Below, piece by piece: positions 2 through 35,364 of a stretch of 64,000 nt of DNA. Below the pieces are notes generated by a model, which saw only the letters and a program-made list of their open reading frames with translations, was not told where the DNA came from and made no database searches. Origin of the DNA: Anaerolineae bacterium (GTDB lineage: Bacteria > Chloroflexota > Anaerolineae > S140-20); contig JALUTT010000145.1 of the NCBI GenBank assembly GCA_027021705.1, positions 32,001 through 96,000 of the forward strand, written 5' to 3'. The position numbers and the translations under genes were made by a program. How positions within the stretch are numbered: position 1 is the stretch's first letter; every line of letters starts with the position of its first letter.

Positions 2-847
2 CGCCGGGAGGAGTGGGAGATCAATGCCTACCCGGTCCTCAATCGGGGCGGGGAGGTGGAGCAGGCGATCCTCTTTGTCCGCGATGTGACCAAACAGCGA
101 ATGCTGGAGGCCTCGTTGCACCAGTCGGAGAAGCTGGCCGCGCTGGGCCAACTGGCTGCCGGCCTGGCCCACGAGATCAATAATCCCCTCACCGCCATCC
201 TGGCCAACACCCAGCTCCTCCTGCTGGATACACCTCCCGAAGACCCCGCCTACGAGTCCTTGGACCTGATCCTGCGGGCCAGTGAACGGGCCATCCGGGT
301 GGTGCGCAACCTATTGGACTTTGCCCGGCAAGAGGCTTACGATTTCGAGCCGGTAGACCTGAATCAGACGATCCGCAATGCCCTGGACCTGGTGCGCCAT
401 CAGTTCGACCTAGCCGGCATCGAGGTCATCTGCGACCTGGCTCCGGGCCTGCCCCCCGCCTACGCTAGCCGTGATCACCTGCAGAGCGTCTGGCTGAACC
501 TTCTCCTGAACGCCCGGGATGCCCTCCTGGAGGCCGCTGAGAAGCCTCAGCGCTGGGTGCGGATCACCACATCCATCGAAGCCGACTGGTTGCAGGTCCA
601 GGTGATGGACAATGGTGTGGGCATCCCGGAGCCCCACCTGAGCCGCATCTTCGAGCCCTTTTTCACCACCAAGGCCCCCGGCAAAGGGACCGGTCTGGGC
701 CTCTCCACCTCTTATCAGATCATCCAGCAGCACCAGGGCCAGATCCTTGTGGACAGTGACCCGGATCAGGGGACGACTTTCACGGTGCTTCTACCGACCG
801 CCAGCCGCAGACCGCCGACCAGGCGGCCAAGCGGCCAAGCGGCCTAG
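2..847 (+). CDS. PAS-associated sensor histidine kinase (NtrB-like), 5' end outside window
   Basis: H-box [10 protein letters not shown]-box [29 protein letters not shown]. The frame is open to the window edge with a PAC-like tail (FVRDVT). Confidence 0.9.
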
Positions 848-927
848 CGACCTAGCGACTCGGCGGCGAACTGAGGACCGGGGACTGAGGACCGAGGACT
901 ACCTGGCCAAGCGACCATCCGACCAAA
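794..927 (+). repeat. Block of degenerate 7-mer (CCGACCG, CTGAGGA) and 8-mer (CGRCCAAG) tandem repeats
   Basis: cgaccagg cggccaag cggccaag cggcctag cgacctag ... ctgagga ccgggga ctgagga ccgagga ... tggccaag cgaccatc cgaccaaa. Confidence 0.8.
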
Positions 928-942
928 GCGAGGAGTGAGACG

Positions 943-8462: not shown

Positions 8463-9003
8463 GAGTGTGACCAAAATGGGTTGGAGGCGGTAGAAGCGCA
8501 ACGCCCCTGCATCTTTCCCCCAACAGCCTCCGATCACGCTCGGTCCAAAAGCCCCCGGAATCACTGAAGCACTGAGGGAAGTGAAGACACTGAGCCGTCG
8601 TCTCCCATCCGTTCAATCCGTTCCCCAATCCGTTGACAGCTCGTCCGCTCCGGCCACGGCGAGAGACACAAAGGGCACCAAGAGCTCAAAGGGCACGAAG
8701 CGGTGCGAAAGGCTGGACAAGCCCTCTTGGGAGCACCACCCCCCCATCCGTTCCAAATCCGTTCAATCCGTTCCCAATCCGTTGACAGCTATCCGTTCCC
8801 CAATCCGTTGACAGCTTGTCCGTCCGCCAACCAAGCCCTCAGAATCACTGACGCACTGAGGGAGGTGAAGACACCGAGCCTTGGGCAGTGCGGCCCAGGT
8901 CGTCGGCAAGGCCGTGACCCGACGCCGGGGAGGGAGTGCATCACTCCTCAGTGAGCTCATTTCTCTCAGCGCTTCAGTGGTTCAACAGCTTTTGGTCACG
9001 CTC
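8463..9003. mobile_element. 541-bp composite non-autonomous element, copy 1 (one 175-bp unit)
   Basis: TIRs GAGTGTGACCAAAA / TTTTGGTCACGCTC. 9-bp duplication ATGTCCAAC (8454-8462) / ATATCCAAC (9004-9012). Closely similar to 22716-23606. Confidence 0.9.
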
Positions 9004-12721: not shown

Positions 12722-14326
12722 TCACCGGGACGCCGATGGAGCCCACTCCAGGTCCACCAGCCAGGGGAACCAGCCCCGGGCGTCGTAGCGCAACCCTCGC
12801 AGCCGGGCGTCGGCCACGTTCAGGTTCACGTAGTCCCGGATGGGCAGGATCCAGGCTTCTTCCATGATGCGCTGCTGCACCCGGCGGTAGAGGGCGGTTC
12901 GGGCTGCCGGGTCCTGCTCCCGCGCAGCCTGGTCCAGCCAGCCGTCCACCTCGGCGTCGGCGACGCGGGCCATGTTGAAGCCTCCCTCCGAGTGGAAGAA
13001 GGTGCGCAGGAGGTCTGGGTCGCTGCCGGAGAGGAAGAAGGCGGCCAGGTGGTGAGCTCCCTTGCCCGTTGCCTCCAGCAGCTCCCCGAAGGGGACCACC
13101 CGGGCGTTCACCCGGATGCCCACCTGCTGCCACTGGTCCTGGAGGAGCTGGGTCACCTCCGGCAGGAAGCCCCAGCTGCCGATGTAGACCTCCAGTTGCA
13201 GGGGCTGCCCATCCCGCTCCCGCACCCCGTCGCCGTCGGCGTCGGTCCAGCCGGCCTCCTCCAGCAGCGCCCTGGCCCGGTCGGGGTCGTAGGGGTAGAA
13301 CTGCCGGACCGCCGGGTCGTACCCCAGCGTCACCGCCGTCAGCGGTCCGTAGGCCACCGGGGAGGTGCCGCCGAAGACCGTCTGGACGATGGCCTCCCGG
13401 TCGGTGGCATAGAGGAGGGCCTGGCGGATCCGGCGGTCGTCGGTGGGGGCTTTCTGGGTGTTGATGTGGAACTGGAGGGACATCCCCGGGATGGGGACGG
13501 GGTAGAGGCGGAATCGCTCGTCGGCCTCCAGCCGCTGGGCGTCCTGGGGCGGGACTTCACCCATCACCTGGGCCTCACCCGATTCCAGGGCCAGGGCGCG
13601 GGTGGCCGGGTCCACGTAGAAGCGGAACTCGATCTCCTCGATGGCCGGCGGCCCCTGGCGGGCGAAGAGGGAGGGCCCCCACCGGTAGTCCGGGTTGCGT
13701 CGTAGGAGCAGGTGGTCGTTGGGGACGTACTCAACGAAACGATAGGGGCCGGTTCCCACCTGGTGGAACTGGTAGTCGGCCCCCCACCGGCGGAGGGCGG
13801 CCGGTGAGGCCATCCCCAGGTAGACCTGGCTGAGCCCGTCCAGCAGCGGGGCGTAGGGTTCCTTCAGGTGGATGCGGACCGTTCGCTCGTCCACCACCTC
13901 GGTGCGGTCGTAGGGGCCTAGCAGGAAGACGGCCTTGCGGGAGCCAGTCTCCGGGTCGGCGATGCGGTCCAGGTTCACCTTCACCGCCTCGGCGTTGAAG
14001 GGGGTGCCATCGTGGAAGTGGACGTCGGAGCGCAGGTAGAAGGTGTAGGTGCGCCCGTCGTCGGAGACCTCCCAGCGTTCCGCCAGCCCTGGGACGAAGG
14101 CGCCGGTCTCCGGGTCCTGGTAGACGAGGGTGTCGTAGACGCTGGTGAGGGGGATGCCCAGCTCCGAGGAGGCCCCGATGTGGGGGTCGAAGCCGGAGAC
14201 GGGGGCCAGGGTCAGGCCGTAGACGATGCGGGTGGGCTCTTTGGCCTGTCGGGAGGTGCAGCCCACCAGAAGCAGGGAGAAGATCACGAGAAGGCTTGGG
14301 ATGCGCAGGCATTGCCGTGGCTTCAT
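12722..14326 (-). CDS. Family-5 ABC substrate-binding lipoprotein (DppA-like)
   Basis: Lipobox LLVGC. VYDTLV, PGLAERW, FHDGTPFNAEAV, GTGPY. Confidence 0.92.
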   Translation of the reverse strand: MKPRQCLRIPSLLVIFSLLLVGCTSRQAKEPTRIVYGLTLAPVSGFDPHIGASSELGIPLTSVYDTLVYQDPETGAFVPGLAERWEVSDDGRTYTFYLRSDVHFHDGTPFNAEAVKVNLDRIADPETGSRKAVFLLGPYDRTEVVDERTVRIHLKEPYAPLLDGLSQVYLGMASPAALRRWGADYQFHQVGTGPYRFVEYVPNDHLLLRRNPDYRWGPSLFARQGPPAIEEIEFRFYVDPATRALALESGEAQVMGEVPPQDAQRLEADERFRLYPVPIPGMSLQFHINTQKAPTDDRRIRQALLYATDREAIVQTVFGGTSPVAYGPLTAVTLGYDPAVRQFYPYDPDRARALLEEAGWTDADGDGVRERDGQPLQLEVYIGSWGFLPEVTQLLQDQWQQVGIRVNARVVPFGELLEATGKGAHHLAAFFLSGSDPDLLRTFFHSEGGFNMARVADAEVDGWLDQAAREQDPAARTALYRRVQQRIMEEAWILPIRDYVNLNVADARLRGLRYDARGWFPWLVDLEWAPSASR

Positions 14327-14823
14327 CGCGTTCCTCCGGGGTTGTGGGTGATCGCTGTCCAGCGGTCGCCGGCCCGCGTCCACTCTTGGCGGTGGCCGAG
14401 GCCGGCCCGGTTGTCAATCCAACGCAGCCAATGCGGGGTGATGCGGTATAGGGCTGCCTGGGAGAGGGCGCGGAACAGGGCGGGGTCGGTGAGGACGAAG
14501 GGGAACTTGGCCGTGTAGCGGACCCAAGCCCTGGTCCGCTCCCCGCCGGTGACCCGGTGGCAGAGGCCCTCCATTTGGAGGCCCCGGATCTCCCGCCAGT
14601 GGGCCGAGGTGGCGTGGATGGTGACGGCCACCCGGGGGTCCCGGGCCACGTTGGCCGCGTGGCGGCTGTCGGTTGCCGAGACGAAGTAGAGGATCAGGTC
14701 GTCGGTCTCGGCGTAGTAGAGGTCGGCGGCCTGGGGTTCTCCGTCAGGACCGACGGTGGCGAGGGTGAGGGTGGTGTGGTCGGCCAGGAAGGCCCGAATC
14801 TGGGCGGGGAGGGGGTGGGTCAC
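14323..14823 (-). CDS. Pyridoxamine 5'-phosphate oxidase-like split-barrel protein (YhbP-like)
   Basis: LTLATV, SRHAANV..DPRVAVTI, IRGLQMEG, IDNRAGLGH. GTG start overlaps the ubiX stop. Confidence 0.8.
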   Translation of the reverse strand: MTHPLPAQIRAFLADHTTLTLATVGPDGEPQAADLYYAETDDLILYFVSATDSRHAANVARDPRVAVTIHATSAHWREIRGLQMEGLCHRVTGGERTRAWVRYTAKFPFVLTDPALFRALSQAALYRITPHWLRWIDNRAGLGHRQEWTRAGDRWTAITHNPGGTR

Positions 14824-15401
14824 CGGTCTGCCAGTCCTTTCCACGGGGTGAAAAGGTGGTTCTCGATTCCCAGGCGGGCCAGGATGCGGCCCACGGTCTG
14901 GTCCACCAGCGCCTCTACGGATGGGGGGCGGGCGTAGAAGGCGGGGACGGGGGGGAAGATGATGGCGCCCAGTTCGGCGGCCTGGACCATCAGCCGCAGG
15001 TGGCCCAGGTGCAGAGGGGCTTCGCGCACGACGAGGAGCAGTGGCCGGCCCTCTTTGAGGGTGACGTCGGCGGCGCGGGTGAGGAGGTCGGCGGCGTAGC
15101 TGTGGGCGATGGCGCTGAGGGTCTTGATGCTGCACGGGATGACGACCATGCCGTCGGTGGGGAAGGAGCCGCTGGCGATGGCGGCCCCGATGTCGTGGGG
15201 TTTGTAGACGACGTCGGCCAGGGCCTCGATAGCGTGCAGCGGGCGGTCGGTCTCGCTGCGAAGGGTGATGCGAGCAGCCGGGCTGATGATCAGGTGGGTC
15301 TCGACGGTGCTGTCTTGGGCTAAGGCATCCAGCAGCCGGACGGCGAGGATGGCGCCGCTGGCCCCGGAGATGCCGACGATCAGCCGTTTGGGTGAGGACA
15401 T
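14820..15401 (-). CDS. ubiX: Flavin prenyltransferase UbiX
   Basis: VGISGASG, IASGS, PCSIKTLSAIA, RAADVTLKE, PPVPAFY. Confidence 0.95.
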   Translation of the reverse strand: MSSPKRLIVGISGASGAILAVRLLDALAQDSTVETHLIISPAARITLRSETDRPLHAIEALADVVYKPHDIGAAIASGSFPTDGMVVIPCSIKTLSAIAHSYAADLLTRAADVTLKEGRPLLLVVREAPLHLGHLRLMVQAAELGAIIFPPVPAFYARPPSVEALVDQTVGRILARLGIENHLFTPWKGLADR

Positions 15402-15421
15402 TAATGTTCCTCGGCGTCCAA

Positions 15422-15477
15422 GGTAGTCGGGTGGTCGGGTGGTCGCTTGGTCAGGTGGTCAGGTGCTCGTTTGCTCA
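15422..15477. repeat. 8-mer tandem repeat block, left arm of an inverted pair
   Basis: ggtagtcg ggtggtcg ggtggtcg cttggtca ggtggtca ggtgctcg tttgctca. Approximate reverse complement of 16871-16926. Confidence 0.85.
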
Positions 15478-15510
15478 GATAGCGTCGGAATGTGAAACCT
15501 GATTACCTCC

Positions 15511-15738
15511 TCATAGCAACTCCAGAAAATCCTCCACACTCAATCGTGCCTGTTTCAAGATGTGTGCTAATGTGGAACGCTTGACAGGACGGTGCGCCGG
15601 GACAACGATCTTGAGCACCTCATCTCCCACACGCTTCTGTAACCGAATATGACTCCCCCGTTGGCGTACCACGGTCCAACCATCCCTTTGCAGGGCACGA
15701 ATGATGCGGTAGTATGGCAAGCTGGGCACTTTGCTCAC
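15511..15738 (-). CDS. hicA: HicA-family toxin
   Basis: GWTVVRQRGSH, VPAH, TLAHILKQA. GTGA overlap with hicB. Confidence 0.9.
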   Translation of the reverse strand: MSKVPSLPYYRIIRALQRDGWTVVRQRGSHIRLQKRVGDEVLKIVVPAHRPVKRSTLAHILKQARLSVEDFLELL

Positions 15739-15944
15739 AGCTCGACCTCCTGCACTACCGCACTCTCCCGCAGCAGCGGGATCAAATCATCTTCCACTGG
15801 TTCTAGATACAGCTCGATCGCTTCTTGAATATTTTTCAAAGCTTCCTCTACCGTCTCTCCCTCGCTGATGCAACCGGGCAGAGAAGGAACATATACGGTA
15901 TATCCACCCTCCTCACTGGGTTCAAGCACTACTTTGAAGCGCAT
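15735..15944 (-). CDS. hicB: HicB-family antitoxin (short form)
   Basis: EEGGYTVYVPSLPGCISEGETVEEALKNIQEAIELYLE. GGGGAGG RBS. Confidence 0.9.
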   Translation of the reverse strand: MRFKVVLEPSEEGGYTVYVPSLPGCISEGETVEEALKNIQEAIELYLEPVEDDLIPLLRESAVVQEVEL

Positions 15945-16052
15945 TGCGACCTCCCCTTGACCGAATTATCTTCAGCATAGTAAGACACTGCAGGCTTCAG
16001 TGCTACTACTGCCTGCCACAACCCCTCACGGGAATCCTTGCATCCGAGTGGC

Positions 16053-16397
16053 TTACCGACGGTTTTGGATGATGATCTCAGAGAGTAGACGGTTCAGATC
16101 GTTCAGCTTTGTCTGGAGAGCTTGCCTTCGTTCTTCGGGCAACTCACGCCAGCGCCGGGCGCGGGCACGCATCTCGGGAGTAGGTCGAGCGATGGGCATA
16201 CCGTGGGCCTCGAGCCAGGCGATGAGTTCGTCGCGGGTGGGCTCCCGCCCTTCGAGCAGCCAGATGGGGGGCTCGGCGACCGGGGAAGGTTCCTCTCGCC
16301 CCCGTCGCAGCTCGGCCACCGTCCGCTCTAGGACTTGTACTCGCGCTTCTAGTTCTTCCAGCCTTTCTTTTACTGAGAGGGAGGGTTGATGATCCAA
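16053..16397 (-). CDS. Hypothetical antitoxin-like protein, start uncertain, no toxin downstream
   Basis: N-terminal coiled coil (RLEELEARVQVLE) like the 16538-16834 product. The C-terminal LSEIIIQNRR resembles VapB-type tails. Confidence 0.5.
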   Translation of the reverse strand: MDHQPSLSVKERLEELEARVQVLERTVAELRRGREEPSPVAEPPIWLLEGREPTRDELIAWLEAHGMPIARPTPEMRARARRWRELPEERRQALQTKLNDLNRLLSEIIIQNRR

Positions 16398-16551
16398 TGG
16401 CGTTCTAGTCCTTGTACTCTGTCGAAATCTGTGTCGTCAGATGCGATAGCTGTCAGACCCAGGCGTTGGATGATTGCCATATGCAGCGCATCGCGCGGGA
16501 GTAGTTAGTATCCACATATACCGAGCCGCTATGCACTTCATCGAGCTTCAT
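16370..16551 (-). pseudogene. PIN-domain (VapC-like) toxin with large internal deletion and frameshift
   Basis: MKLDEVHSGSVYVDTN is joined out of frame to LPRDALHMAIIQRLGLTAIASDDTDFDRV...PPSQ*. These are the N- and C-terminal PIN motifs with the middle missing. Confidence 0.8.
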
Positions 16552-16834
16552 AGAGGCCACCGATTTTCAGGGAGAAATCATAGTCTGCGGCTTTCTCTTG
16601 CCCTAGGCATCCGGCCAATTCGTCCAGTATCTCTTCGGGCTGGGGAGCCTCCATAGGGAGAATGCGGATTTCGCCCGCTTCAATGACGATTCGCACTTGC
16701 TTGCCCAAGCCGGCTGCTTGTAGAGTCTCCTGGTTGATGATCAGATTCCCTGGGTGGCTTACTTGTTTCAGTTCCGCTACGGTTTGCTCCAACCGGCGGA
16801 CGCGCTTCTCCAGCTCTTCCAGTGTTGTTGCCAT
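16538..16834 (-). CDS. Putative antitoxin (coiled coil plus AbrB-like strands) upstream of the vapC remnant
   Basis: GGAGGAG RBS, MATTLEELEKRV, AbrB-like LQAAGLGKQVRIVIEAGEIRILP. Overlaps the PIN start. Confidence 0.65.
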   Translation of the reverse strand: MATTLEELEKRVRRLEQTVAELKQVSHPGNLIINQETLQAAGLGKQVRIVIEAGEIRILPMEAPQPEEILDELAGCLGQEKAADYDFSLKIGGLYEAR

Positions 16835-16847
16835 CGTCTCTCCTCCG

Positions 16848-16926
16848 CTGACCGCCGACCGCCGACCATTCGACCAGGCGACCACCTGACCACTCGACCA
16901 AGCGACCACCTGACCACCCGACCAAA
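16848..16926. repeat. 7-mer plus 8-mer tandem repeat block, right arm of an inverted pair
   Basis: ctgaccg ccgaccg ccgacc att cgaccagg cgaccacc tgaccact cgaccaag cgaccacc tgaccacc cgaccaaa. Confidence 0.85.
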
Positions 16927-16954
16927 TTATAACCGCCCTTCTTCCCCCCGTCAA
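16926..16954 (-). promoter_or_regulatory. Near-consensus sigma70-type promoter reading into the TA cassette
   Basis: TTGACG (16954-16949)-17 nt-TATAAT (16931-16926) on the minus strand. Confidence 0.75.
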
Positions 16955-17691
16955 TCGGCCTGACGCCAGGGGCAGAGCCGGCGGTCGAGGCCGTCTACGA
17001 CGAAGTAGAGGGTCAGGCCCAGCAGGCTCATCGCCAGCACGCCGGCGTACATCTGGGCGTAGCGCAACGCCCCCCAGCTCTCGACGATGATGTAGTAGCC
17101 CAACCCGGAGGTCGTGGCGTAGGTCTCGGCGATGAAGAGGACGGCGATGGCGGTCCCCACGCTGACCCGCAGGGCGGTGAGGACGGCCGGCAGGGAGGCC
17201 GGCAGGTAGACGTACCGGAAGAGCGCCCGCCGCCCCGCGCCCAGGGAGCGCACGGAGAGGATGAGCTCCGGGCGCAGGCCGGCCGCCTCGTCGCGCACGA
17301 CGACGAGGATCTGGAAGAAGAGGATCAAGGCGATGAGGAAGACCTTGCTCCCGTTGCCGGATCCGAGGAGGACGAGGATGACGGGCAGGAAGACGATCTT
17401 GGGGATGGGGTGCACGATGTAGATCAGAGGCGAGAAGAGGCGGTCGAGGGTGCGGATCTGGCCTAGCCCCAGCCCCGCCGGCACGGCGACCAGGACGGCC
17501 AGGACGATGGCGGCCACGACCCGCCCGGCGCTGACCAGCAGGTGTCGGCCCAGGTCGCCCGGGAGCTGGCGGGCGAAGACGAGGAGCACCACCGTCGGCG
17601 GCGGGAAGACGGGCCGGGCGATGAGCAGGGAGAGCAGTTCCCACAGGATCAAGGTGGCGACGAACCCCAGAGCCGCATCACGCCAGCGCAT
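16951..17691 (-). CDS. NitT/TauT-family ABC transporter permease
   Basis: FPPPTVV, PIPKIVFLP, SVRSLGAG, LPASLP, IAE...GLGY. Confidence 0.9.
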   Translation of the reverse strand: MRWRDAALGFVATLILWELLSLLIARPVFPPPTVVLLVFARQLPGDLGRHLLVSAGRVVAAIVLAVLVAVPAGLGLGQIRTLDRLFSPLIYIVHPIPKIVFLPVILVLLGSGNGSKVFLIALILFFQILVVVRDEAAGLRPELILSVRSLGAGRRALFRYVYLPASLPAVLTALRVSVGTAIAVLFIAETYATTSGLGYYIIVESWGALRYAQMYAGVLAMSLLGLTLYFVVDGLDRRLCPWRQAD

Positions 17692-18475
17692 TGGCCTCCT
17701 CTCCCATCAGCGTTCGCAGTTCGTTGCAGCGGGTGAAAAAGCGTTCCTGGTGGCGGTAGCCGGGCTCGCCGGCCTGGGGGTTGGAGACGACGACGGCCTC
17801 CCGATGGGGCGGGTGGCCCAGGACCAGAATCTTCTCGCCGATGAAAACGGCTTCCTCGATGTTGTGGGTGACCAGGATGGTCGTCAGGTGCTGCTCGGCG
17901 TGCAGCTCCCGGGTGAGGTTCTGGAGGTCCTCCCGCGTCAGGGCGTCCAGGGCACCGAAGGGCTCGTCCATCAGCAGCAGGTCGGGGTGCAGGGCCAGGG
18001 TGCGGGCGATGGCGGTCCGCTGGCGTTGGCCGCCGCTGATCTGGTGGGGGTAGAGGTGGGCGACGTGGGCGATGCCCAGCCGGCGAAGCCAGTAGGCCAC
18101 CCGGTCCTGGGCGTCGTCAAACCGCTCGTCGGCCGGGGCGTGCACGCCGTCGGGGCCGTAGAAGGCACGGATCTTCAGCCCCAGGGCCGCGTTCTCCTCG
18201 ACGGTGGCCCAGGGGAGCAGGCCGTAGTCCTGCAAGATCAGGCCGGTGCGGGGGCGGGGGCGGGTGAGGGGCCGGCCGTCCACCAGGACCCGGCCGGCGG
18301 TGGGGCGGCGCAGGCCCGCCAGCAGGTAGAGCAGCGTCGTCTTACCGCAGCCGCTGGGACCGATGACCGCCCAGGCTTCTCCCCGCTCGACGCTCCAGGA
18401 GAAACCCTCGAAGAGGGTGATGCCGCTGGGATAGGCGAAGGTGAGGTCCTGGACCTGGATCATCGGATCGTTCAT
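17678..18475 (-). CDS. NitT/TauT-family ABC transporter ATPase
   Basis: GPSGCGKTT, LLPWATV, ISGGQRQR, LLLMDEPFGALD, VTHNIEEA. Confidence 0.93.
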   Translation of the reverse strand: MNDPMIQVQDLTFAYPSGITLFEGFSWSVERGEAWAVIGPSGCGKTTLLYLLAGLRRPTAGRVLVDGRPLTRPRPRTGLILQDYGLLPWATVEENAALGLKIRAFYGPDGVHAPADERFDDAQDRVAYWLRRLGIAHVAHLYPHQISGGQRQRTAIARTLALHPDLLLMDEPFGALDALTREDLQNLTRELHAEQHLTTILVTHNIEEAVFIGEKILVLGHPPHREAVVVSNPQAGEPGYRHQERFFTRCNELRTLMGEEANALA

Positions 18476-19335
18476 CGCGCGTACAGGGCGAGCAGCGTGG
18501 CGACGAAGAGGGTGACGGCGATGTAGCCGTTGACGTTGAAGAAGGCGACGTTCACCCGGGAGAGGTCGGTGGGCGAGACCAGGGAGTGCTCGTAGATGAG
18601 CAGGCCGGCGGTGATGGCCAGCCCCAGCCAGTAGGGCCAGCCCAGCCCCACGCTCCGGCCGACGGCGGCCAGGAAGCCGACGGTCAGGAGGTGGTTGGCC
18701 CGGGCCAGGCGCAGGGCGACGGCGTTGCCGAAGCGGGCCGGCACGGCGTGGAGCCCTTCGGCCCGGTCGAATTCGGTGTCCTGGCAGGCGTAGATGAGGT
18801 CGAAGCCGGCGATCCAGAAGGTGACGGCAGCCAGGAGGAGCCAGGCGGGGCGGTCGGCCGGCGTGAAGAGGCTGGCCCGCACGGCGACCCAGGCCCCCAT
18901 CGGGGCCAGCCCATCGGTGAAGCCCAGCACCCAGTGGCTGAGCCAGGTGAAGCGCTTGGTGAAGCTGTAGCCGACGAGGAAGAGCAGCGCTCCCGGCAGC
19001 AGCTTCAGGGCCAGCGGGTTGAGCTGCCAGGCGGCGATGGTCAGGACGACGGCGGCGACGAGGCCATAGGCCAGCGTTGCCCGGGGGGAGAGCCGGCCGC
19101 TGGGGATGGGGCGGTGGGCCGTGCGGGGGTTACGGGCGTCGTAGACCCGGTCGGCCCAGCGGTTGACGGCGAAGGCGACCGTCCGGGCCGCGGCCATCGC
19201 CACGGTGATCCAGAAAAAGTGGCGTAGGGAAGGCCAGCCTCCGGCGGCCAGCACCATCCCTAGGTAGGCGAAGGGCAGGGCGAAGACGGTGTGCTCGAAG
19301 CGGATGGTCTCCAGGAAGAGGCGGAGGGAGGTCAT
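18472..19335 (-). CDS. mqnP: UbiA-family prenyltransferase (MqnP-like)
   Basis: IRFEHTVFALPFA, NRWADRVYDARNPRT..RPIP, YSFTKRFT, GFDLIYACQD..FD, AFFNVNG. Confidence 0.85.
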   Translation of the reverse strand: MTSLRLFLETIRFEHTVFALPFAYLGMVLAAGGWPSLRHFFWITVAMAAARTVAFAVNRWADRVYDARNPRTAHRPIPSGRLSPRATLAYGLVAAVVLTIAAWQLNPLALKLLPGALLFLVGYSFTKRFTWLSHWVLGFTDGLAPMGAWVAVRASLFTPADRPAWLLLAAVTFWIAGFDLIYACQDTEFDRAEGLHAVPARFGNAVALRLARANHLLTVGFLAAVGRSVGLGWPYWLGLAITAGLLIYEHSLVSPTDLSRVNVAFFNVNGYIAVTLFVATLLALYAR

Positions 19336-20807
19336 CGGATGCCGTACTCGTCCCAGCGTCGGTCTACCAGTGCCTTGATCTCAGGGCTCATCACGATCTC
19401 GTCGGGCCAGCCGCGCTTGTGGCCGTCCTCAGGGCCCTTGGCGGTCGCGTCCACGCCGATCTTGCCGCCGTAGGAGTGGCGGACGGCGCTGTGGTCCAGA
19501 TGGTCCACCGGCCCCTCCACGATGACCACATCCCGACGCCAGTCCACGTTGCCCAGGACCCGCCAGGCGACTTCGGAGAGGTCGTGGACGTTGACGTCGT
19601 GGTCCACGACGACGATGGCCTTGGCCAGCATCATCAGCCCCAGCCCCCACAGGCCGTGGATCACCTTGCGGGGGTGGCCGGGGTAGCGCTTCCTGATGCT
19701 GACGATGACCAGGTTGTGGAAGACGCCCTCGGCGGGCATGTTCACGTCCACAATCTCGCCGAGGAATAGGCGCATCAGGGGTAGGAAGAGCCGTTCGGTG
19801 GCCTTGCCCATCCAGTAGTCCTCCATCGGCGGGCGGCCGACGACGGTGGTGGGGTAGATGGGCTCCCGGCGGTGGGTGACGGCGGTGACGTGGAAGACGG
19901 GGAAGGGCTCGGCCGGCGTGTAGAAGCCGGTGTGGTCGCCGAAGGGGCCTTCGAGCCGGTGTTCGTGGGGGTCCACGTAGCCCTCGATGACGATCTCGGC
20001 GTCGGCGGGCACCTCCAGCGGCTGGGTGACGCAACGCACCAGGTGGACGGGCCGGCCCCGCAGCCAGCCGGCCAGGAGGTACTCGTCCACGTCGGGGGGG
20101 AGGGGGGCCGAGGCGCACCAGATCTCGGCGGGGTCGCCGCCCAGGACGACGGCGGCCGGGATGTGCTCGACACCTCGCTCCCGGGCCACTCGTTCGTGCT
20201 CCGCGCCCCCTTTGTGGCGCTGCCAGTGCATCCCCAGCAGGGGAGGGCGGCCCGGTGCCCCGGCGTCGAAGAGCTGGAGGCGGTACATCCCGACGTTGCG
20301 CCGACCGGTGACCGGGTCGCGGGTGACCACCTGGGGGAGGGTGATGTAGCGGCCGGCATCCCCGGGCCAGCACTTGAGGATGGGGAGCCAGTCCAGGGTG
20401 GGGTTCTCCGTCTCGACGACCTCCTGACAGGGGCCGGATTTCACGATGCGGGGGCCGATGCGGGCCACATCCAGCATCTCCAGCCCCCGGCGCAGCTTCT
20501 CCCCCAGGGTGCGGGGCATCGTCAGGTCCAGCACCTTCTCCAGGTTCCGGCCCAGGTCGTCCAGCGCCTCGACGCCCAGGGCCCAGGCCATCCGCCGGGC
20601 GGAGCCGAAGGCGTTGATGAGGAGGGGGACGGTGGAGCCGGTGACCTGCTCGAAGAGGAGCGCCTTGTTCTGGGCCGGCGGCCCCTTGACCACCCGGTCG
20701 GCGATCTCGGTGATCTCCAGTTCGGGGCTGACGGGAACCCGGACGCGCACCAGTTGGTCGCGCTCCTCCAGGAGCCGGATGAACTCACGAAGGTCTTTGA
20801 AGGCCAT
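19332..20807 (-). CDS. mqnL: UbiD-family menaquinone biosynthesis decarboxylase (MqnL-like)
   Basis: LEITEIADR, RNVGMYRLQ, MHWQRHKGG, EGPFGDHTGFY, GRPPMED, GPVDHLDH, GVDATAK. Confidence 0.85.
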   Translation of the reverse strand: MAFKDLREFIRLLEERDQLVRVRVPVSPELEITEIADRVVKGPPAQNKALLFEQVTGSTVPLLINAFGSARRMAWALGVEALDDLGRNLEKVLDLTMPRTLGEKLRRGLEMLDVARIGPRIVKSGPCQEVVETENPTLDWLPILKCWPGDAGRYITLPQVVTRDPVTGRRNVGMYRLQLFDAGAPGRPPLLGMHWQRHKGGAEHERVARERGVEHIPAAVVLGGDPAEIWCASAPLPPDVDEYLLAGWLRGRPVHLVRCVTQPLEVPADAEIVIEGYVDPHEHRLEGPFGDHTGFYTPAEPFPVFHVTAVTHRREPIYPTTVVGRPPMEDYWMGKATERLFLPLMRLFLGEIVDVNMPAEGVFHNLVIVSIRKRYPGHPRKVIHGLWGLGLMMLAKAIVVVDHDVNVHDLSEVAWRVLGNVDWRRDVVIVEGPVDHLDHSAVRHSYGGKIGVDATAKGPEDGHKRGWPDEIVMSPEIKALVDRRWDEYGIR

Positions 20808-20816
20808 CGTTGGGGC

Positions 20817-21077
20817 TTATCCGCCGATTGCCTGCACGGCTGAGTACTGAGGCACGGCCAGGTAGCGCTCAGGGCGGTGGCGGTGGTATTCGCTCAGGAA
20901 CTGGTCCAGTTTCTCCGAGATGTTCGCTGAGATATATGCCTCCCCACATTGCTCGCAGACATCGGCCGGGACATCGCGGATGATGATGAGGTCTTCCCCG
21001 CGCCAAATTTCCAGTGTCGTCGTTCCGGGCCCTAGTTCTCCTCCACAAAGGTCGCAGCGATCCAGGTGTTCGTTCAT
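20817..21077 (-). CDS. YgiT/MqsA-type zinc-finger protein (antitoxin-like)
   Basis: CDLCGG...IIRDVPADVCEQCGEAY. Confidence 0.85.
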   Translation of the reverse strand: MNEHLDRCDLCGGELGPGTTTLEIWRGEDLIIIRDVPADVCEQCGEAYISANISEKLDQFLSEYHRHRPERYLAVPQYSAVQAIGG

Positions 21078-21116
21078 TTTTGCACCTTCCGTGTCTTGTA
21101 ATCGCTTTCCCATAGC
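21074..21116 (-). pseudogene. C-terminal remnant of a DUF4258-like toxin
   Basis: LWESDYKTRKVQK* overlaps the YgiT start as ATGA. It resembles the W.DYRRRR tail of the intact pair at 31917-32237. Confidence 0.5.
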
Positions 21117-21134
21117 CTGTCAGAAGAGGCTTGC

Positions 21135-22361
21135 TCATTGCTTCTCGTAAGGCTTGCCGATGGCCGCCGGCGGGATGGAGCGCCCGATGACGCCGGCCAG
21201 GACGATGACGGTGAGCACATAGGGGACCATCTGGAGGAACTCGGCGGGGATGCCCACCCCCAGGATCTGCATCTTGTCCTGGAGGGCATCGGCGAAGCCG
21301 AAGAGCATCCCGGCTCCCAGCCCACCCAACGCCGTCCACTTGCCGAAGATGAGGGCGGCCAGCGCGACGAAGCCCTTGCCGTTGGTCATCGCGTCCTCGA
21401 AGCGGCCCACCTCGCCCAGGGAGAAGTAGGCCCCACCGATGCCGGCGATCAGCCCGCCGATGAGGACGTTGATGTAGCGGGTGCGGTTGACGTGGACGCC
21501 CAAGGTGTCGGCGGCCTGGGGATGCTCGCCCACCGCCCGCGTGCGCAGCCCCCACCGGGTGTGAAAGAGGACGACGTGGACGATGACCACCAGCACCATC
21601 ATCAGGTAGACCGTCGGCTGGTGCAGGAAGAAGATGGGGCCGATGAAGGGAATCTTGGAGAGGCCGGGGATGGCGAAGGCGGTGAAGGTTCCCGGCGCGT
21701 TGTGGCCGCTGGGCGTCAGCAGCCGGACGTTGAGGTAGCGGGTCGCCCCCACGGCCAGGATGTTGATGACGGTGCCGCTGATGATCTGGTCCACCTTGTA
21801 GCGGATGGAGAGGACGGCGTGCAGGGCGGCCATCAGGGCGCTGACCAGCATGGCCGCGCCGACGCCCACCCAGTGGCTGCCGCTGAGGGAGGCGGCGGCG
21901 ACGGCGGTGAAAGCTCCGGTGAGCATCATCCCTTCAATGGCGATGTTGATGACGCCGGAACGCTCGCACCAGAGGCCGCTGAGGGCTCCCAGCACCAAGG
22001 GGGTGGACCGCACGATGGACTCGCGAAGCATCCCCAGCAGGCTCAGGCTCCGCCCCCGGGTGAGCCAGACCAGGAAGGCGCTCACGATGAAGAGGGAGAC
22101 CAGCCCCAGCAGCAGGTCGCTCCAGCGGTCTCCCTTGGCCCACTGAACGCCGGCGGCGAAGAGGGAGAGCAGGGCCAGGACGTAGAGGGCGGCCCGGGTG
22201 GGCAGGGTGACCAGCGGAGTGTCGGCGTCGAATTGGGTGAAGGCGGAGCGGTGGGCCGGCGTCACCGTCAACGCGGTCACCAGCAGGATGATGATCCCGC
22301 CGGCCAGGAAGAGCAGGCTCAGCAGTCGCTCGCGGGGGATCCCCTTGGATGTTGGACTCAC
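21135..22361 (-). CDS. Nucleoside/simple-sugar (CUT2) ABC permease, NupC-like, copy 2
   Basis: ERSGVINIAIEGMML, GLRTRAVGEHP.AADTLG, GFVALAALIFGKW, PAAIGKPY. Confidence 0.9.
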   Translation of the reverse strand: MSPTSKGIPRERLLSLLFLAGGIIILLVTALTVTPAHRSAFTQFDADTPLVTLPTRAALYVLALLSLFAAGVQWAKGDRWSDLLLGLVSLFIVSAFLVWLTRGRSLSLLGMLRESIVRSTPLVLGALSGLWCERSGVINIAIEGMMLTGAFTAVAAASLSGSHWVGVGAAMLVSALMAALHAVLSIRYKVDQIISGTVINILAVGATRYLNVRLLTPSGHNAPGTFTAFAIPGLSKIPFIGPIFFLHQPTVYLMMVLVVIVHVVLFHTRWGLRTRAVGEHPQAADTLGVHVNRTRYINVLIGGLIAGIGGAYFSLGEVGRFEDAMTNGKGFVALAALIFGKWTALGGLGAGMLFGFADALQDKMQILGVGIPAEFLQMVPYVLTVIVLAGVIGRSIPPAAIGKPYEKQ

Positions 22362-22456
22362 TTCGGCATATCTCCTTGCTTCTGACCTTGAGCTTCGCCT
22401 CAGGCGACCGTCTCCTTCCGGGTTCCGTCTGGGACAAAGGCACCAGGATGCCTTGG

Positions 22457-22693
22457 CTATTTGGGGGGCGGAGCTACCAGGATTCTTGCCTGGACCGATT
22501 CCAGGAAGAAATCCCGCAGGAACGTGCTCGCGTTCAAAATCTCGATGCCAATGAGTTCGCCTCGATCGTTCAACTCGGCGGTCACGTTGGGATGGATTTC
22601 GACGCTGCCCGCTTCTGGTTCATCGGAGAAAGCGAGGTGCAGGACATCCTCTTGCTCAAAATACACCATCCGGGTCGTCCTCTTGTCGCTCAT
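22457..22693 (-). CDS. DUF2283-family protein (antitoxin-like)
   Basis: YFEQEDVLHLAF...SVEIHPNVTAELNDRGELIGIEILNAS. GAGG upstream of ATG 22693. Confidence 0.8.
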   Translation of the reverse strand: MSDKRTTRMVYFEQEDVLHLAFSDEPEAGSVEIHPNVTAELNDRGELIGIEILNASTFLRDFFLESVQARILVAPPPK

Positions 22694-22715
22694 GCAAGTA
22701 CCTCTGATTTCAAAC

Positions 22716-23606
22716 GAGTGTGACCAAAATGGGTTGGAGGCGGTAGAAGCGCAACGCCCCTGCATCTTTACCCCAGCAGCTTCCGGTCACGCTCGGTTCA
22801 AAAGCCCCCGGAATCACTGACGCACTGAGGGAAGTGAAGACACTGAACCGTCATCCCCCATCCGTTCAATCCGTTCCCCAATCCGTTGACAGCTCGTCCG
22901 CTCCGGCCACGGCGGGAGACACGAAGGACACCAAGAGCTCAAAGAGCACGAAGCGGTGCGAAGGTCTGGACAAGCCCTCTTGGGGGCACCACCCCCCCAT
23001 CCGTTCCCAATCCGTTCAATCCGTTCCCAATCCGTTGACAGCTATCCGTTCCCCAATCCGTTGACAGCTCGTCCGCTCCGGCCACGGCGGGAGACACGAA
23101 GGACACCAAGAGCTCAAAGAGCACGAAGCGGTGCGAAGGTCTGGACAAACCCTCTTGGGGGCACCACCCCCCCATCCGTTCCCAATCCGTTCAATCCGTT
23201 CCCAATCCGTTGACAGCTATCCGTTCCCCAATCCGTTGACAGCTCGTCCGCTCCGGCCACGGCGGGAGACACGAAGGACACCAAGAGCTCAAAGAGCACG
23301 AAGCGGTGCGAAGGTCTGGACAAACCCTCTTGGGAGCACCAACCCCCCATCCGCTCCAAATCCGTTCAATCCGTTCCCAATCCGTTGACAGCTATCCGTT
23401 CCCCAATCCGTTGACAGCTTGTCCGTCCGCCAACCAAGCCCTCAGAATCACTGACGCACTGAGGGAGATGAAGACACTGAGCCTTGTGCAGGGCGGCCCA
23501 GGTCGTCGGCAAGGCCGTGACCCGACGGTGGGGAGGGGGCACACAACCCCTCAGTGAGCTCATTTCTTTCAGTTGCTCAGTGATTCAACGGCTTTTGGTC
23601 ACGCTC
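22716..23606. mobile_element. 891-bp composite non-autonomous element, copy 2 (three 175-bp units)
   Basis: Same TIRs as 8463-9003. Perfect 9-bp duplication ATTTCAAAC at 22707-22715 and 23607-23615. Interrupts a DUF86-like frame. Confidence 0.92.
22869..23419 (+). repeat. 175-bp tandem repeat (three units plus a partial)
   Basis: ATCCGTTCCCCAATCCGTTGACAGCT recurs at 22869, 23044, 23219 and 23394, with near-identical intervening sequence. Confidence 0.95.
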
Positions 23607-23743
23607 ATTTCAAACTTCCTCACGACAGCGCTTGCCGTCTTGTCATCTGCGCAAAATGTCTCAAAATCCATTCCCTCTACAAATGTCTCGATGCTCTCCA
23701 TGGCGGCTAGGATGTCCTTCAGGTACAATCGGTAGTCTCTCAT
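23607..23743 (-). pseudogene. N-terminal fragment of HepT/DUF86 (HEPN) toxin
   Basis: MRDYRLYLKDILAAMESIETFVEGMDFETFCADDKTASAVVRKFE. The expected IGEA segment and Rx4H region are absent. It is preceded by an MntA-like tail VLSEVVPI* overlapping as ATGA. Confidence 0.8.
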
Positions 23744-23783
23744 ATCGGTACGACCTCCGACAGTACCCCCAAACCGTCCTTTG

Positions 23784-24986
23784 CTACGCTCCCCACCCCC
23801 GGCTGAAGACGACTTCCTCTTCCTCGACCCGCCGGGGCGGGCGCAGGCGGAAGAGCCCTCGGATGATGGCAGGGGCGGCAATGAAGATGATGACCATCGC
23901 CTGGACGATCTGGACGATCTCGATGGGGATGGAGGCGACGGACTGCATCCGGGTGCCGCCGGCCCGCAGGAAGCCGAAGAGCAGCGCGGCCAGGGTGACG
24001 CCCAGGGGGTGGCTCTTGCCCAGCAGGGCCAGGGCGATGCTGTCGAAGCCGTAGCCGGCCGAGAAGCCCAGCGCCATGTTGTGGGTCACGCCCAGCACCT
24101 GGACGGCACCCGCCATCCCCGCCAGCGCTCCGCTCAGGAACATGGCCAGGACGAAGCTGCGGGCGACGTTGATGCCCCCGTAGCGGGCTGCGTTGGGGTT
24201 GGCCCCCACCGTCCGCAGCTCGAAGCCCCACACCGTCTTCCAGAGGAACCACCAGACGAAGAAGGCGGCTGCCAGGGCGATGAAGAAGCCGGCGTGGAAG
24301 CGGATGGGGTGGGGCAGGAAACGGGGCAGGACGGCCGTGGGGGCGATCTCCGGCGTGCGGGCGGTTCCCTTCATCCCCTCCATCGGCCCGTTGAGGAGCC
24401 ACTCGCTCAGCTTGAAGGCGATGTAGTTGAACATAATGGTGTTGATCACCTCGTGGGCTCCGGTGCGGGCCTTCAGGTAGCCGGGGACGGCCCCCCACAG
24501 CCCGGCGCCGACGATGCCGGCCAGGAGGGCCAGGGAGACGTGGAGCAGGGCGGGGAGGCCGGTGACGGCGTAGCCCACGTAGGCGGTGCAGAGCCCACCG
24601 ATGACCAATTGGCCTTCGGCCCCGATGTTGAAGAGGCCGGCCCGGAAACCGAGGGCGACGGCCAGCCCGGCGAAGATGTAGGGCACCGAGTTGACCAGGC
24701 TCTCGCTGAAGGGGCGCAGGGCCGAATAGAGCTTGCGGGGGTTCCCACTGCTGCGCCACTCGCCGAAGGCGCTGGTGATACGGGCCGGGCTGCCAAAGGC
24801 CCCCTCGAAGAGGGTGACGTAGGCTTGCCAGGCTTTCTGGCCGGCCAGCTTGAGCACTTGGCCGGCCGGCTCTTGCCCCGTCGCCTCGATCACCTCGGGG
24901 TCGGTGACGATGACGATGAGGCCGGCGATGAGCAATGCCGTGAGGACGGCCAGGACCGGGACGGTGAAGGTCGTCAGTTTGCGCAT
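23784..24986 (-). CDS. CUT2 ABC permease, NupB-like, copy 2
   Basis: GLFNIGAEGQ, AHEVINTIM, GFELRTVGANPNAARYGG, GFDSIALALLGKSHP. Confidence 0.9.
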   Translation of the reverse strand: MRKLTTFTVPVLAVLTALLIAGLIVIVTDPEVIEATGQEPAGQVLKLAGQKAWQAYVTLFEGAFGSPARITSAFGEWRSSGNPRKLYSALRPFSESLVNSVPYIFAGLAVALGFRAGLFNIGAEGQLVIGGLCTAYVGYAVTGLPALLHVSLALLAGIVGAGLWGAVPGYLKARTGAHEVINTIMFNYIAFKLSEWLLNGPMEGMKGTARTPEIAPTAVLPRFLPHPIRFHAGFFIALAAAFFVWWFLWKTVWGFELRTVGANPNAARYGGINVARSFVLAMFLSGALAGMAGAVQVLGVTHNMALGFSAGYGFDSIALALLGKSHPLGVTLAALLFGFLRAGGTRMQSVASIPIEIVQIVQAMVIIFIAAPAIIRGLFRLRPPRRVEEEEVVFSRGWGA

Positions 24987-25020
24987 AGGCGGACTCGCAG
25001 GAACGCTTGGATGGTCTGGG

Positions 25021-26283
25021 TCAGGCTTTCTCGTAGGGTTGACCGTCGGCGGCGGGCGGGATGGCGCGGCCAACGATGCCGGCCAGCGTGATCATCGTCG
25101 CCAGGTAGGGAGCCATCAACAGGAACTCCGAGGGGATGGGGACCTTGAGGATGGCCAGCTTCGTCTGCAGGGAGTCGGCCAGGCCGAAGATGAGGGAGGC
25201 GGCGAAGCCCCCGAAGGGGTTCCACTTGCCGAAGATCATCGCGGCCAGGCCGATGAAGCCCTTGCCGGCCGTCATCACCTCGTCGAAGCGGCCCACGGAC
25301 CCCAGGGTGAAGTAGGCCCCGCCCAGGCCGGCGATGCAGCCGCCGATGATGACGTTGACGTAGCGGGTGCGGAAGACGTTGATGCCCAGCGTGTCGGCCG
25401 CCTTGGGATGCTCCCCCACCGCCCGCGTGCGCAGCCCCCAGCGGGTGTAGAAGAGCACGACGTGGGTAATGATGACCAGCAGGAGCGTCAGGTAGACGAC
25501 CAGGTTGGTGTTGAAGAAGACCGGCCCCAGCACGGGGATCTTCGCCAGCAGGGGGATGGGGACGGGGCGGAAGTTGACCGAGGCGTTGAGGCGCTCGTTG
25601 GTCGCCAGCCAGCTCGCGCTCAGAAAGCTGGTCAGCCCCACGGCGAAGATGTTGATGGCCGTGCCCGCGACGATCTGGTCTACTTTGAAACGGATGGCCA
25701 GGACGGCCAGGACGGCGGCCAGCAGGCCGCCGGTGATGAGGGCCACGATGAGCCCCAGGAGCAACCCGGTCGTCGTCCCCAGCCCCCAGATGTTCTGGGC
25801 TGCGCTGGAGACGATGACGCTGGTGAAGGCGGCGCTGAGCATCATCCCCTCGATGGCGATGTTGATGACCGCCGAGCGCTCGCACCAGACGCCGCTCAGG
25901 GCGCCCAGGGTGATGGGGGTGGCCCGCAAGAGGGTGCTGACCAACATCCCCGTCAGGCTGAAGGATTTACCCCGGGCCGCCCAGGTGAGAAAGGCGAAGA
26001 CGAAGACCAGGAGCAGCGTGCCCAGCACGGCGTTGACCGCTCTGAAGCCGCGCACGAGCTGCCAGCCGCCGACGAAGGCGCACAGCAGCCCCAGCACGTA
26101 GATGGTTGTCCGGGTCGGCAGTACCAAGTCGGGCACCGGGATGGGCGGCGTCTTGGTCACGAGGTTGAGCACGAAGGTCGAGCGCTGGTCGGGGGCCGCA
26201 TCCGGTCCGAAAAGGTAGATGATCGCAATGCCGATGAGGGCGAAGACCACCCCCATCGCCCGGTCACGGCGCTTCGTAGGCAT
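25021..26283 (-). CDS. CUT2 ABC permease, NupC-like, copy 1
   Basis: ERSAVINIAIEGMML, GLRTRAVGEHP, GFIGLAAMIFGKWNP. Paralogous to 21135-22361. Confidence 0.9.
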   Translation of the reverse strand: MPTKRRDRAMGVVFALIGIAIIYLFGPDAAPDQRSTFVLNLVTKTPPIPVPDLVLPTRTTIYVLGLLCAFVGGWQLVRGFRAVNAVLGTLLLVFVFAFLTWAARGKSFSLTGMLVSTLLRATPITLGALSGVWCERSAVINIAIEGMMLSAAFTSVIVSSAAQNIWGLGTTTGLLLGLIVALITGGLLAAVLAVLAIRFKVDQIVAGTAINIFAVGLTSFLSASWLATNERLNASVNFRPVPIPLLAKIPVLGPVFFNTNLVVYLTLLLVIITHVVLFYTRWGLRTRAVGEHPKAADTLGINVFRTRYVNVIIGGCIAGLGGAYFTLGSVGRFDEVMTAGKGFIGLAAMIFGKWNPFGGFAASLIFGLADSLQTKLAILKVPIPSEFLLMAPYLATMITLAGIVGRAIPPAADGQPYEKA

Positions 26284-26303
26284 TCTCGTTCCTTAACGTT
26301 CCT

Positions 26304-26419
26304 GTAACTGTTCGCCCTCCCGCAGGTTAGGCGCGTTTCCGCCGCGAAACCGTGCTTCCAATAGCCCATCGGGGCTGCAAGCACCCTCGACCGGTGACCT
26401 GCGGGAGGGTAGGCTGAAT
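26304..26419 (+). mobile_element. 122-bp MITE, copy 2 (right end eroded, no TSD seen)
   Basis: GTAACTGTTCGCCCTCCCGCAGG...GGGAGGGTAGGCTGAAT abuts the permease stop codon. Confidence 0.85.
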
Positions 26420-27694: not shown

Positions 27695-27764
27695 AATCTT
27701 CTTTGCTCCTCAGCTTGGGCTCGCTTCCCAAAAGGGCTTTTCGTCTGATCCCAGGACCAGGGTG

Positions 27765-35021: not shown

Positions 35022-35022
35022 T

Positions 35023-35328: not shown

Positions 35329-35335
35329 AGGGAGC

Positions 35336-35364
35336 ATTATAAGCGTCCTTGCCAGGACCGTCAA
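35336..35364 (-). promoter_or_regulatory. Near-consensus promoter placing +1 at or near the ATG at 35328
   Basis: TTGACG-17 nt-TATAAT, with the -10 box ending 7 nt before the ATG. Confidence 0.7.

Follow-up and report, generated by a model that had tools for sequence, protein, structure and literature searches.

A toxin-antitoxin cluster between inverted octamer arrays in the permease-ubiX spacer of an Anaerolineae genome, and its likeness to ribosomal RNA intervening sequences

In a 64,000-nucleotide (nt) stretch of an Anaerolineae genome (GCA_027021705.1, contig JALUTT010000145.1, positions 32,001 to 96,000; hereafter the window, with positions counted from its first letter), a small block of toxin-antitoxin genes lies between two inverted arrays of short repeats in a spacer of a quinone-synthesis operon. 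A run of minus-strand genes extends here from ubiD (20807) to a PNPOx-like gene (14326), and Pfam identifies UbiD, UbiA, an ABC ATPase, an ABC permease and a UbiX-type flavoprotein in the operon string, with the UbiA and UbiD genes located upstream of the ubiX-type gene and co-directional with it. The upstream host gene, encoding the ABC transporter permease, occupies 16951..17691 on the minus strand (PF00528, 3.4e-20), and the downstream host gene, encoding the ubiX-type flavoprotein, occupies 14820..15401 on the same strand (PF02441, 1.8e-39). These assignments place the insertion exactly where the original prediction, made from the letters of the DNA, had located it. Reading from the permease stop (16951-16953) to the ubiX start (15401), the block comprises a promoter-like site, the right arm, a 98-residue gene, a vapC remnant, a 114-residue gene, hicB, hicA, the left arm and the ubiX Shine-Dalgarno (SD) sequence.

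A repeat search of the window confirmed the long inverted octamer arms. The segments 15426-15476 and 16872-16922 are each 51 nt long and 86% complementary, with 7 mismatches and 1395 nt between them, and a wider span (15422-15476 with 16864-16918) gives 55 nt at 76%. Tandem Repeats Finder resolves both arms into period-8 tandem arrays of GGTGGTCR octamers with a 24-nt superperiod. The right arm (16845..16925, minus strand), which is the 5' arm on the cargo sense strand, contains about 8 octamers followed by 2-3 GGCGGTC heptamers, beyond which the first cargo gene begins with its SD and start. Its sense octamers are of the GGTGGTCR type (G24 C10 over the 51-nt core), with period 24 at 16856-16925 and period 7 at 16845-16867. 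The left arm (15422..15478, minus strand) is the 3' arm on the same sense strand and consists of about 7 octamers that read as YGACCACC-type units in sense (C23 G10). It stops 20 nt before the ubiX start codon, and the ubiX SD, GAGGAA, lies at 15412-15407. All 8 occurrences of GGTC-N4-GGTC-N4-GGTC in the 64-kb window fall in one of the two arms, compared to 0.08 expected from shuffles. When 34 gene units of the window were tested for flanking inverted arms, the four-gene cassette as a whole scored 23/24 and the other 33 units scored 18/24 or less.

The enclosed DNA differs in composition from its surroundings. GC content within the block is 0.48-0.60, compared to 0.67-0.76 in the flanks, the exception being a patch of 0.64-0.68 over 16100-16400. 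Similarly, GC at third codon positions (GC3) is 0.52-0.65 in the cargo genes and 0.87-0.96 in the host genes, in agreement with the 1.4 kb of lower-GC DNA originally described. A TTGACG-17-TATAAT promoter directed into the right arm also held up on inspection. This promoter-like site (16926..16954, minus strand) has TTGACG at 16954-16949, a 17-nt spacer and TATAAT at 16931-16926, matching consensus at 11/12 positions, and it is unique in 14700-17800, where shuffles average 0.4. The -35 box extends over the permease stop codon (16953-16951), and the transcript start is expected within the first repeat unit of the right arm. Intrinsic terminators were not found around the block, and no tRNA genes were found. 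A search for known RNA families in 14000-18500 at E up to 1 returned no credible match, with one chance snoRNA row, and Rfam, including rRNA, gave no match across the whole window at the gathering score. As originally noted, no recombinase or target-site duplication is visible: transposase and integrase families are absent from the 41 scanned open reading frames (ORFs) of the window, and no direct repeat could be read at the outer ends of the arms (left ...GTCCAA, right ATTATAA...).

The first cargo gene is a vapB-like gene encoding 98 amino acids (16538..16834, minus strand; ORF 16541-16834). Its end and the start of the vapC remnant share 14 nt, and its antitoxin label derives from this overlap and from its position. 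The protein matched no family in Pfam, NCBIfam or PADLOC and produced weak MazE-like structural rows (TM score 0.37-0.43), so that the antitoxin named in the original prediction stands by its location and not by a family signature. The vapC (PIN) remnant follows at 16370..16551 on the minus strand. Its first ~16 codons (ATG at 16551) and its final 44 (16504-16373) are fused in different frames, the ~110 codons between them having been deleted, and the gene is thus broken as predicted. The 44-residue C-terminal piece matches 107 proteins, nearly all of them PF01850 members of ~170 amino acids (best 95% identity, with the full-length VapC proteins P0001 and P0002). The N-terminal 16 residues match P0001, a full-length VapC relative whose termini match both pieces, and the closest named VapC relative is from Anaerolineae.

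Downstream of the remnant lies a 114-residue ORF with no assigned family (16053..16397, minus strand; ORF 16056-16397), whose GC of 0.62 and GC3 of 0.65 are above those of the rest of the cargo. Pfam, NCBIfam and PADLOC gave it no significant family, and its nearest clusters in the ESM Atlas are unnamed, with Chloroflexota the commonest source (score 0.91). For this protein and the vapB-like protein alike, nothing significant was returned from Pfam, NCBIfam, PADLOC, PDB sequences or the ESM Atlas. The two proteins nevertheless have an N-terminal 20-residue helix in common (14/20 identical, E 2e-5), and this similarity suggests a shared module or a partial duplication within the cassette. No family was found for this gene, the second antitoxin-like gene of the original prediction. 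The cassette ends with hicB, a short-form antitoxin of 69 amino acids (15735..15944, minus strand; PF15919, 1.9e-13), and hicA, a toxin of 75 amino acids (15511..15738, minus strand; PF07927, 1.1e-15), both of which had been recognized correctly. By the usual mark of type II toxin-antitoxin systems, adjacent small genes with family signatures, hicBA qualifies as a pair, vapC only as a PF01850 remnant and vapB by position.

Judging from gene content and composition, we conclude that the cargo is a foreign, horizontally acquired and partly decayed toxin-antitoxin cluster. It counts as foreign because its GC3 lies below that of the host genes, and decaying because the vapC remnant carries both a deletion and a frameshift. 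The cassette DNA, the 114-residue protein and the full-length VapC relative P0001 were each searched against a plasmid collection, and none gave a match. A second toxin-antitoxin-like pair, consisting of a DUF2283 gene (PF10049) and an adjacent small ORF, is found at 34635-35448 of the window and lacks inverted arms (17/24).

The original prediction noted that the arms align in register, including a variant unit (CTTGGTC). Arrays from elsewhere show whether this match marks a special relation between the arms, and whether such arms are particular to the cassette. A genome collection was scanned for four GACCA cores spaced 8 nt apart, in which 19 bases are specified, a pattern for which ~4 chance matches are expected under uniform base composition. 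The resulting sample of at least 118 loci (designated by L numbers), 80 of them with 3-kb flanks, is an arbitrary subset that covers GACCA-core octamers only, and the source genome is not among the matches listed. The listed loci are true arrays from many phyla. Chloroflexota metagenome-assembled genomes (MAGs) are frequent, and six MAGs give two or three loci each among the at least 118 matches listed. The best 48-nt match between the two arms of the window is 42/48, compared to 40.5 +/- 2.1 for arrays assembled at random from the units of the arms (P = 0.32), and arrays of other genomes match the right arm at 45/48 (L055) and 46/48 (L089). A pair-specific relation between the arms was rejected on these grounds, since the observed match falls within the null and foreign arrays do equally well or better. 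As random arrays and those of other genomes reach the same level, alignment in register, even of the variant unit, is a property of the family. The arms belong to a dispersed array family and are not private to the cassette.

Members of this family also stand unpaired, in other genomes and in the window itself. All three arrays in the 64-kb window are intergenic, and the one additional, unpaired array (806..930, plus strand) ends 14 nt before the start codon of tpiA (943-1710, PF00121). It is built, in order, of CCGCCGA/GACC and GGCC octamers, ACTGAGG heptamers and GACCA octamers. At L055 (1540-1735), a composite of CCGCCGA units, ACTGAGG heptamers and GACCA octamers likewise occurs, with an SD preceding an unrelated membrane-protein gene, and the composite leader before tpiA and in L055 looks, from its order of units, like a portable leader module. 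More generally, an SD and start codon follow a GACC-sense array at a distance of 8-23 nt in 11 loci (L006, L024, L035, L045, L052, L055, L062, L082, L089, L100 and L106). The tpiA and ubiX arrays of the window are also in the GACC sense shortly before an SD and start codon, and the left arm is laid out as an ordinary leader array of ubiX. Starts follow arrays at 21 loci in the GACC sense and at 11 in the GGTC sense, counts that depend on crude gene calls, some of the GGTC-sense ones looking spurious. The possibility that the GGTGGTC/GACCACC units mimic Shine-Dalgarno and anti-Shine-Dalgarno sequences was dropped, as arms elsewhere use unrelated units. Many 5' arms are purine-rich.

The window contains a second dispersed repeat family, a 175-nt unit of which 3.2 copies lie at 22869-23429 and a single partial one near 8.7 kb (regions 8680-8870 and 22860-23430). 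Each 175-nt copy contains ATCCGTTCC-type 11-mers and a TTGACAGCT motif. In the surrounding stretch, 20800-29300, the longest ORFs have GC3 of 0.49-0.72 and no Pfam match at 1e-5; the stretch may be another foreign island, or its ORFs may be mis-called.

Pairs of inverted arrays recur in other genomes. About 20 of the 118 listed loci have an inverted partner array (17 by BLAST), and most partners are 1-160 nt apart, forming hairpins. Their order is G-first in 12 loci, compared to 2 that are clearly C-first. At L106, for example, the csoR stop is followed by a GGTC array, a loop, a GACC array, an SD and copZ, and the fold has a predicted energy of -82.6 kcal/mol (z = -8.05). From this layout we propose that L106 represents the empty state of a foldback, and the pair in the window resembles such empty array hairpins in the gene spacers of other genomes. 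Five Acidobacteriota loci from four MAGs (L014, L029, L064, L076 and L084) have a common short motif at both termini, and no target-site duplication was read at these copies. One Bradymonadaceae MAG (L040, L056 and L108) carries three ~250-bp palindromic elements with outer arms of CCGCTGGT-type octamers and an interior that is palindromic too, an element that resembles MITEs (miniature inverted-repeat transposable elements) or REPINs. At L015, two C-first array hairpins (2290-2400 and 2960-3040) lie between glycosyltransferase-like coding stretches, where a 1098-residue frame stays open by chance.

Hairpins with a gene in the loop were also present. The listed loci include two wide-gap array pairs, and both enclose a 23S_rRNA_IVP / four-helix-bundle gene (PF05635, TIGR02436; IVP gene below). 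At L063 the IVP gene, with an arm on either side, stands between pheS and pheT, all on one strand. The IVP gene of L076, whose arms are 37 nt long and 97% complementary, has a periplasmic-binding-protein gene on one side and an MqnA-like gene on the other. A third IVP gene, at L015, is bracketed by arms (27 nt at 89%) whose repeat unit is different.

We extended this comparison to plasmids, where a tblastn search with the L063 IVP protein returned 20 records. Fifteen were fetched and 14 could be evaluated, L133 being cut by the record start. Inverted arms scoring at least 19/24 flank the IVP gene at 11 of the 14 (L119, L120, L121, L123, L125, L126, L129, L130, L131, L132 and L134). As L129-L131 are copies of one locus, these amount to ~9 independent cases. 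The plasmid arms are tandem repeats of 7-8 nt whose unit is different in most loci, and those in Nostoc, Calothrix and Anabaena are heptamer arrays. Three loci are exceptions. In L122 the gene is flanked by direct arrays, and there is an inverted partner upstream; in L124 the sole array lies 3' of the gene, with an ISL3 transposase gene 5' of it; and L128 has no inverted arms reaching 19/24. In a control covering 50 kb of a Nostoc plasmid, the IVP gene scored 24/24, whereas the other 36 coding sequences scored 17/24 or less (0/36 with arms); the two toxin-antitoxin pairs on this plasmid scored 14/24.

The IVP genes of the plasmids are co-oriented between operon genes and occupy many unrelated operon spacers. 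The same arrangement as in the window, a G-rich array, a small co-oriented gene and a complementary array in an operon spacer, brackets IVP genes in several phyla. In 10/10 loaded pairs, including that of the window, the 5' arm in the cargo sense has more G than C and the 3' arm more C than G. Because a G-first palindrome reads G-first on both strands, this polarity is a property of the hairpin type and not of the orientation of the cargo. The window itself contains no IVP gene or remnant that a profile of 10 IVP proteins searched against six-frame ORFs, or tblastn, could detect.

On three cyanobacterial plasmids (L119, L122 and L132), the IVP genes lie between cas genes, once as cas10-IVP-cmr3 and twice as cas6-IVP-cas4. 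The Pfam family 23S_rRNA_IVP is given among CRISPR-linked domains in a figure legend of PMC10910872. If IVP genes are inserts, that could account for the listing, and their CRISPR linkage may not reflect function, which calls for caution in guilt-by-association screens.

Based on these comparisons, the reading we prefer, with confidence that stops a little short of even, is that the block is a cargo-bearing foldback in the permease-ubiX spacer, with a toxin-antitoxin passenger, that probably works like an rRNA intervening sequence. Two inverted copies of the dispersed octamer array, the 5' copy rich in G and the 3' copy rich in C, would make up the foldback, which is set within the ubiD-ubiA-ABC-ubiX string. 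The arms are not parts of the toxin-antitoxin systems, and the toxin-antitoxin genes read as an unusual passenger for the foldback class. Cargo transcription would come from the promoter at 16926-16954 plus read-through from the operon, and the two arms would then anneal into an RNA duplex of ~50 bp, for which the predicted energy in the sense transcript is -95.3 kcal/mol. By analogy with rRNA intervening sequences, ribonuclease III (RNase III), which is specific for double strands, could cleave this duplex. Such cleavage would part the cargo RNA from the ubiX message, and an insert in the middle of the operon would be tolerated. The SD of the first cargo gene lies within the loop, and that of ubiX lies beyond the stem on its 3' side; because both sites are outside the stem, cleavage would split the two messages without damage to either. 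Two routes are conceivable for the cargo: insertion into the loop of a hairpin that already existed, or recombination between arrays.

Several observations weigh against this interpretation. The 7 arm mismatches of the window include 1 G.U and 4 A.C in the sense RNA, and selection for sense-RNA pairing was not seen over 10 arm pairs, in which G.U numbered 10 and A.C 19. Given this lack of G.U enrichment, the complementarity may be a palindromic legacy at the level of DNA. An RNA stem that loops the cargo out of the mRNA, as the original prediction suggested, has precedent in IVP genes and in the rRNA intervening sequences cut by RNase III (PMC4990558). The pairing proposed here would have to span 1.4 kb of translated mRNA, and the RNase III step is proposed by analogy. 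No other loaded site that we found carries toxin-antitoxin genes, which makes the window case a singleton, and neither the two toxin-antitoxin pairs of the control plasmid nor the second such pair of the window has arms. A pre-existing hairpin at the permease-ubiX junction is likewise something we infer. Finally, the locus sample is arbitrary and confined to GACCA-core octamers, and the start calls behind the 21 GACC-sense and 11 GGTC-sense loci are crude.

Other explanations account for part of the same evidence. The arms could be the terminal inverted repeats, or the portable homology, of a non-autonomous mobile cassette that moves them together with the cargo, through a recombinase or transposase encoded elsewhere or through a RecA-dependent double crossover with the arms of empty hairpins at other places in the genome. 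Such a unit corresponds to the gene-capture or exchange site of the original prediction. The Acidobacteriota MAGs, with dispersed copies whose termini are conserved and of which L076 is loaded, speak for this mobility, as do the three palindromic Bradymonadaceae copies, the six MAGs with two or more loci among the at least 118 matches listed, and the spread of IVP genes over many unrelated operon spacers. Arms and cargo could even have arrived together, since the arm units are of a type common in lower-GC Anaerolineae MAGs and the closest named VapC relative is from Anaerolineae. Yet no target-site duplication was read beside the arms of the window or the Acidobacteriota copies, the 41 window ORFs include no transposase or integrase family, and no product known to move DNA is encoded by the cargo. 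The units of the arms also form unpaired arrays that stand as plain gene leaders, and no second copy of the cassette turned up in the plasmid collection or among the 118 loci listed. We consider a mobile cassette rather unlikely on balance. Absence of any function in the pairing is a still less probable explanation, though not a negligible one. Here the left arm would simply be the leader array of ubiX and the right arm that of an incoming vapB-like operon, their inversion and proximity being coincidental. The arm-to-arm match, which is no better than that of random family arrays (P = 0.32), and the single arrays that occur before genes are compatible with chance, and a rough estimate for three arrays in 64 kb, two of them inverted and 1.4 kb apart, is ~0.07. 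Coincidence does not explain why inverted pairing recurs, at about 20 of 118 listed loci and at 11 of 14 plasmid IVP genes compared to none of 36 controls, or why the pair in the window shares the G-first polarity of 10/10 loaded pairs. Moreover, the orientation of the right arm is the rarer one for a leader directly before a start codon.

The octamers could also be operator arrays through which one or more antitoxins of the cassette, bound at the right arm next to the promoter, regulate their own synthesis. The right arm lies between the -10 box and the SD of the first cargo gene, a usual place for operators of type II toxin-antitoxin systems. The left arm, however, is downstream of the cassette, and an 8-bp period does not hold sites on one face of the helix. 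We reject antitoxin operators as very improbable because the same units precede unrelated genes, including tpiA in the window and copZ, a macro-domain gene and others elsewhere.

Returning to the foldback that we favor, inverted arms built of repeats may mark a widespread and undescribed class of operon-spacer cassettes, which could be called IVS-like cassettes after the intervening sequences (IVSs) of rRNA. Their usual cargo would be an IVP gene, with other selfish cargo on occasion; the arms would cut the insert from polycistronic RNA, empty hairpins would serve as landing or exchange sites, and the rRNA IVS would be a special case. We regard this generalization as somewhat doubtful. The putative class may range from Chloroflexota and Acidobacteriota to cyanobacterial plasmids. 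If it is real, it ties together three subjects hitherto kept apart: the 7-8-nt tandem arrays of many bacterial genomes, the 23S rRNA intervening sequences with their four-helix-bundle genes, and the manner in which small selfish genes, here a toxin-antitoxin cluster, can sit in an essential operon without breaking it. Neither toxin-antitoxin genes nor IVP genes outside rRNA were described between inverted arms of tandem repeats in the literature that we searched, which is weak evidence given its incomplete coverage. Reports on prokaryotic repeats of 6-9 nt are rare according to PMC4692102.

How does the block compare with known repeat-bounded elements? Integron cassettes are small, often promoterless, bounded by structured repeats and frequently carry toxin-antitoxin genes, each with one attC in direct orientation and with an integrase and attI nearby. 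The block differs from them in that its arms are inverted tandem arrays and not a single imperfect palindrome, and no integrase family is found among the 41 ORFs. MITEs, mobile insertion cassettes and REPIN doublets are closer in form. These elements are intergenic, bounded by inverted repeats and devoid of their own transposase; they sometimes carry passengers, are often co-transcribed and form hairpins. The arms of the window do constitute terminal inverted repeats of the kind that defines MITEs and mobile insertion cassettes, but they are tandem arrays rather than unique terminal sequences, and no target-site duplication was seen. We know of no cognate transposase for arms of this type. Arms built of short tandem repeats are a feature of the Foldback transposons of eukaryotes, whose long terminal inverted repeats enclose variable or no cargo and are mobilized by a transposase; the likeness to the window lies in this construction, whereas the host and scale are different.

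As arrays, the repeats in the window recall the short tandemly repeated repetitive (STRR) sequences of filamentous cyanobacteria, dispersed intergenic arrays of ~7-nt units that occur in either orientation and often in leaders. Like STRRs, they consist of short tandem units and are intergenic and dispersed, but their 8-nt unit makes them a variant, and the host of the window, with a genome of 67% GC, is not a cyanobacterium.

The nearest relative of the block as a whole is the 23S rRNA IVS. In Coxiella, an S23p ORF sits in the loop of a stem formed by 28-bp terminal inverted repeats, the 5' end carries tandem heptamers, and excision by RNase III occurs in vitro (PMC4990558). Like these elements, the block holds small ORFs in the loop of a long inverted-repeat stem inside a co-transcribed host unit. 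Its long stem pairs over 51 nt at 86% complementarity, with a predicted duplex of -95.3 kcal/mol. The short tandem repeats at the 5' end of an rRNA IVS, which are heptamers in Coxiella, are a further likeness to the window arms, and non-rRNA copies of the S23p/IVP gene family have arms built in the same way as those of the window. Unlike the rRNA IVS, the window arms consist wholly of tandem octamers over ~50 nt. An rRNA IVS is inserted in an rRNA helix and carries a PF05635/TIGR02436 ORF; the block lies in the mRNA operon spacer between the permease and ubiX genes and carries a 1.4-kb toxin-antitoxin cluster in which no IVP gene or remnant was found. RNase III removes the IVS from its host RNA (PMC4990558), and excision of the window block would be analogous. 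The original suggestion of an undescribed system was therefore too strong, because the architecture has a known relative in the rRNA IVS. We conclude that the IVS-like architecture is already known, and that the toxin-antitoxin cargo and the setting in an mRNA operon spacer are what is new.

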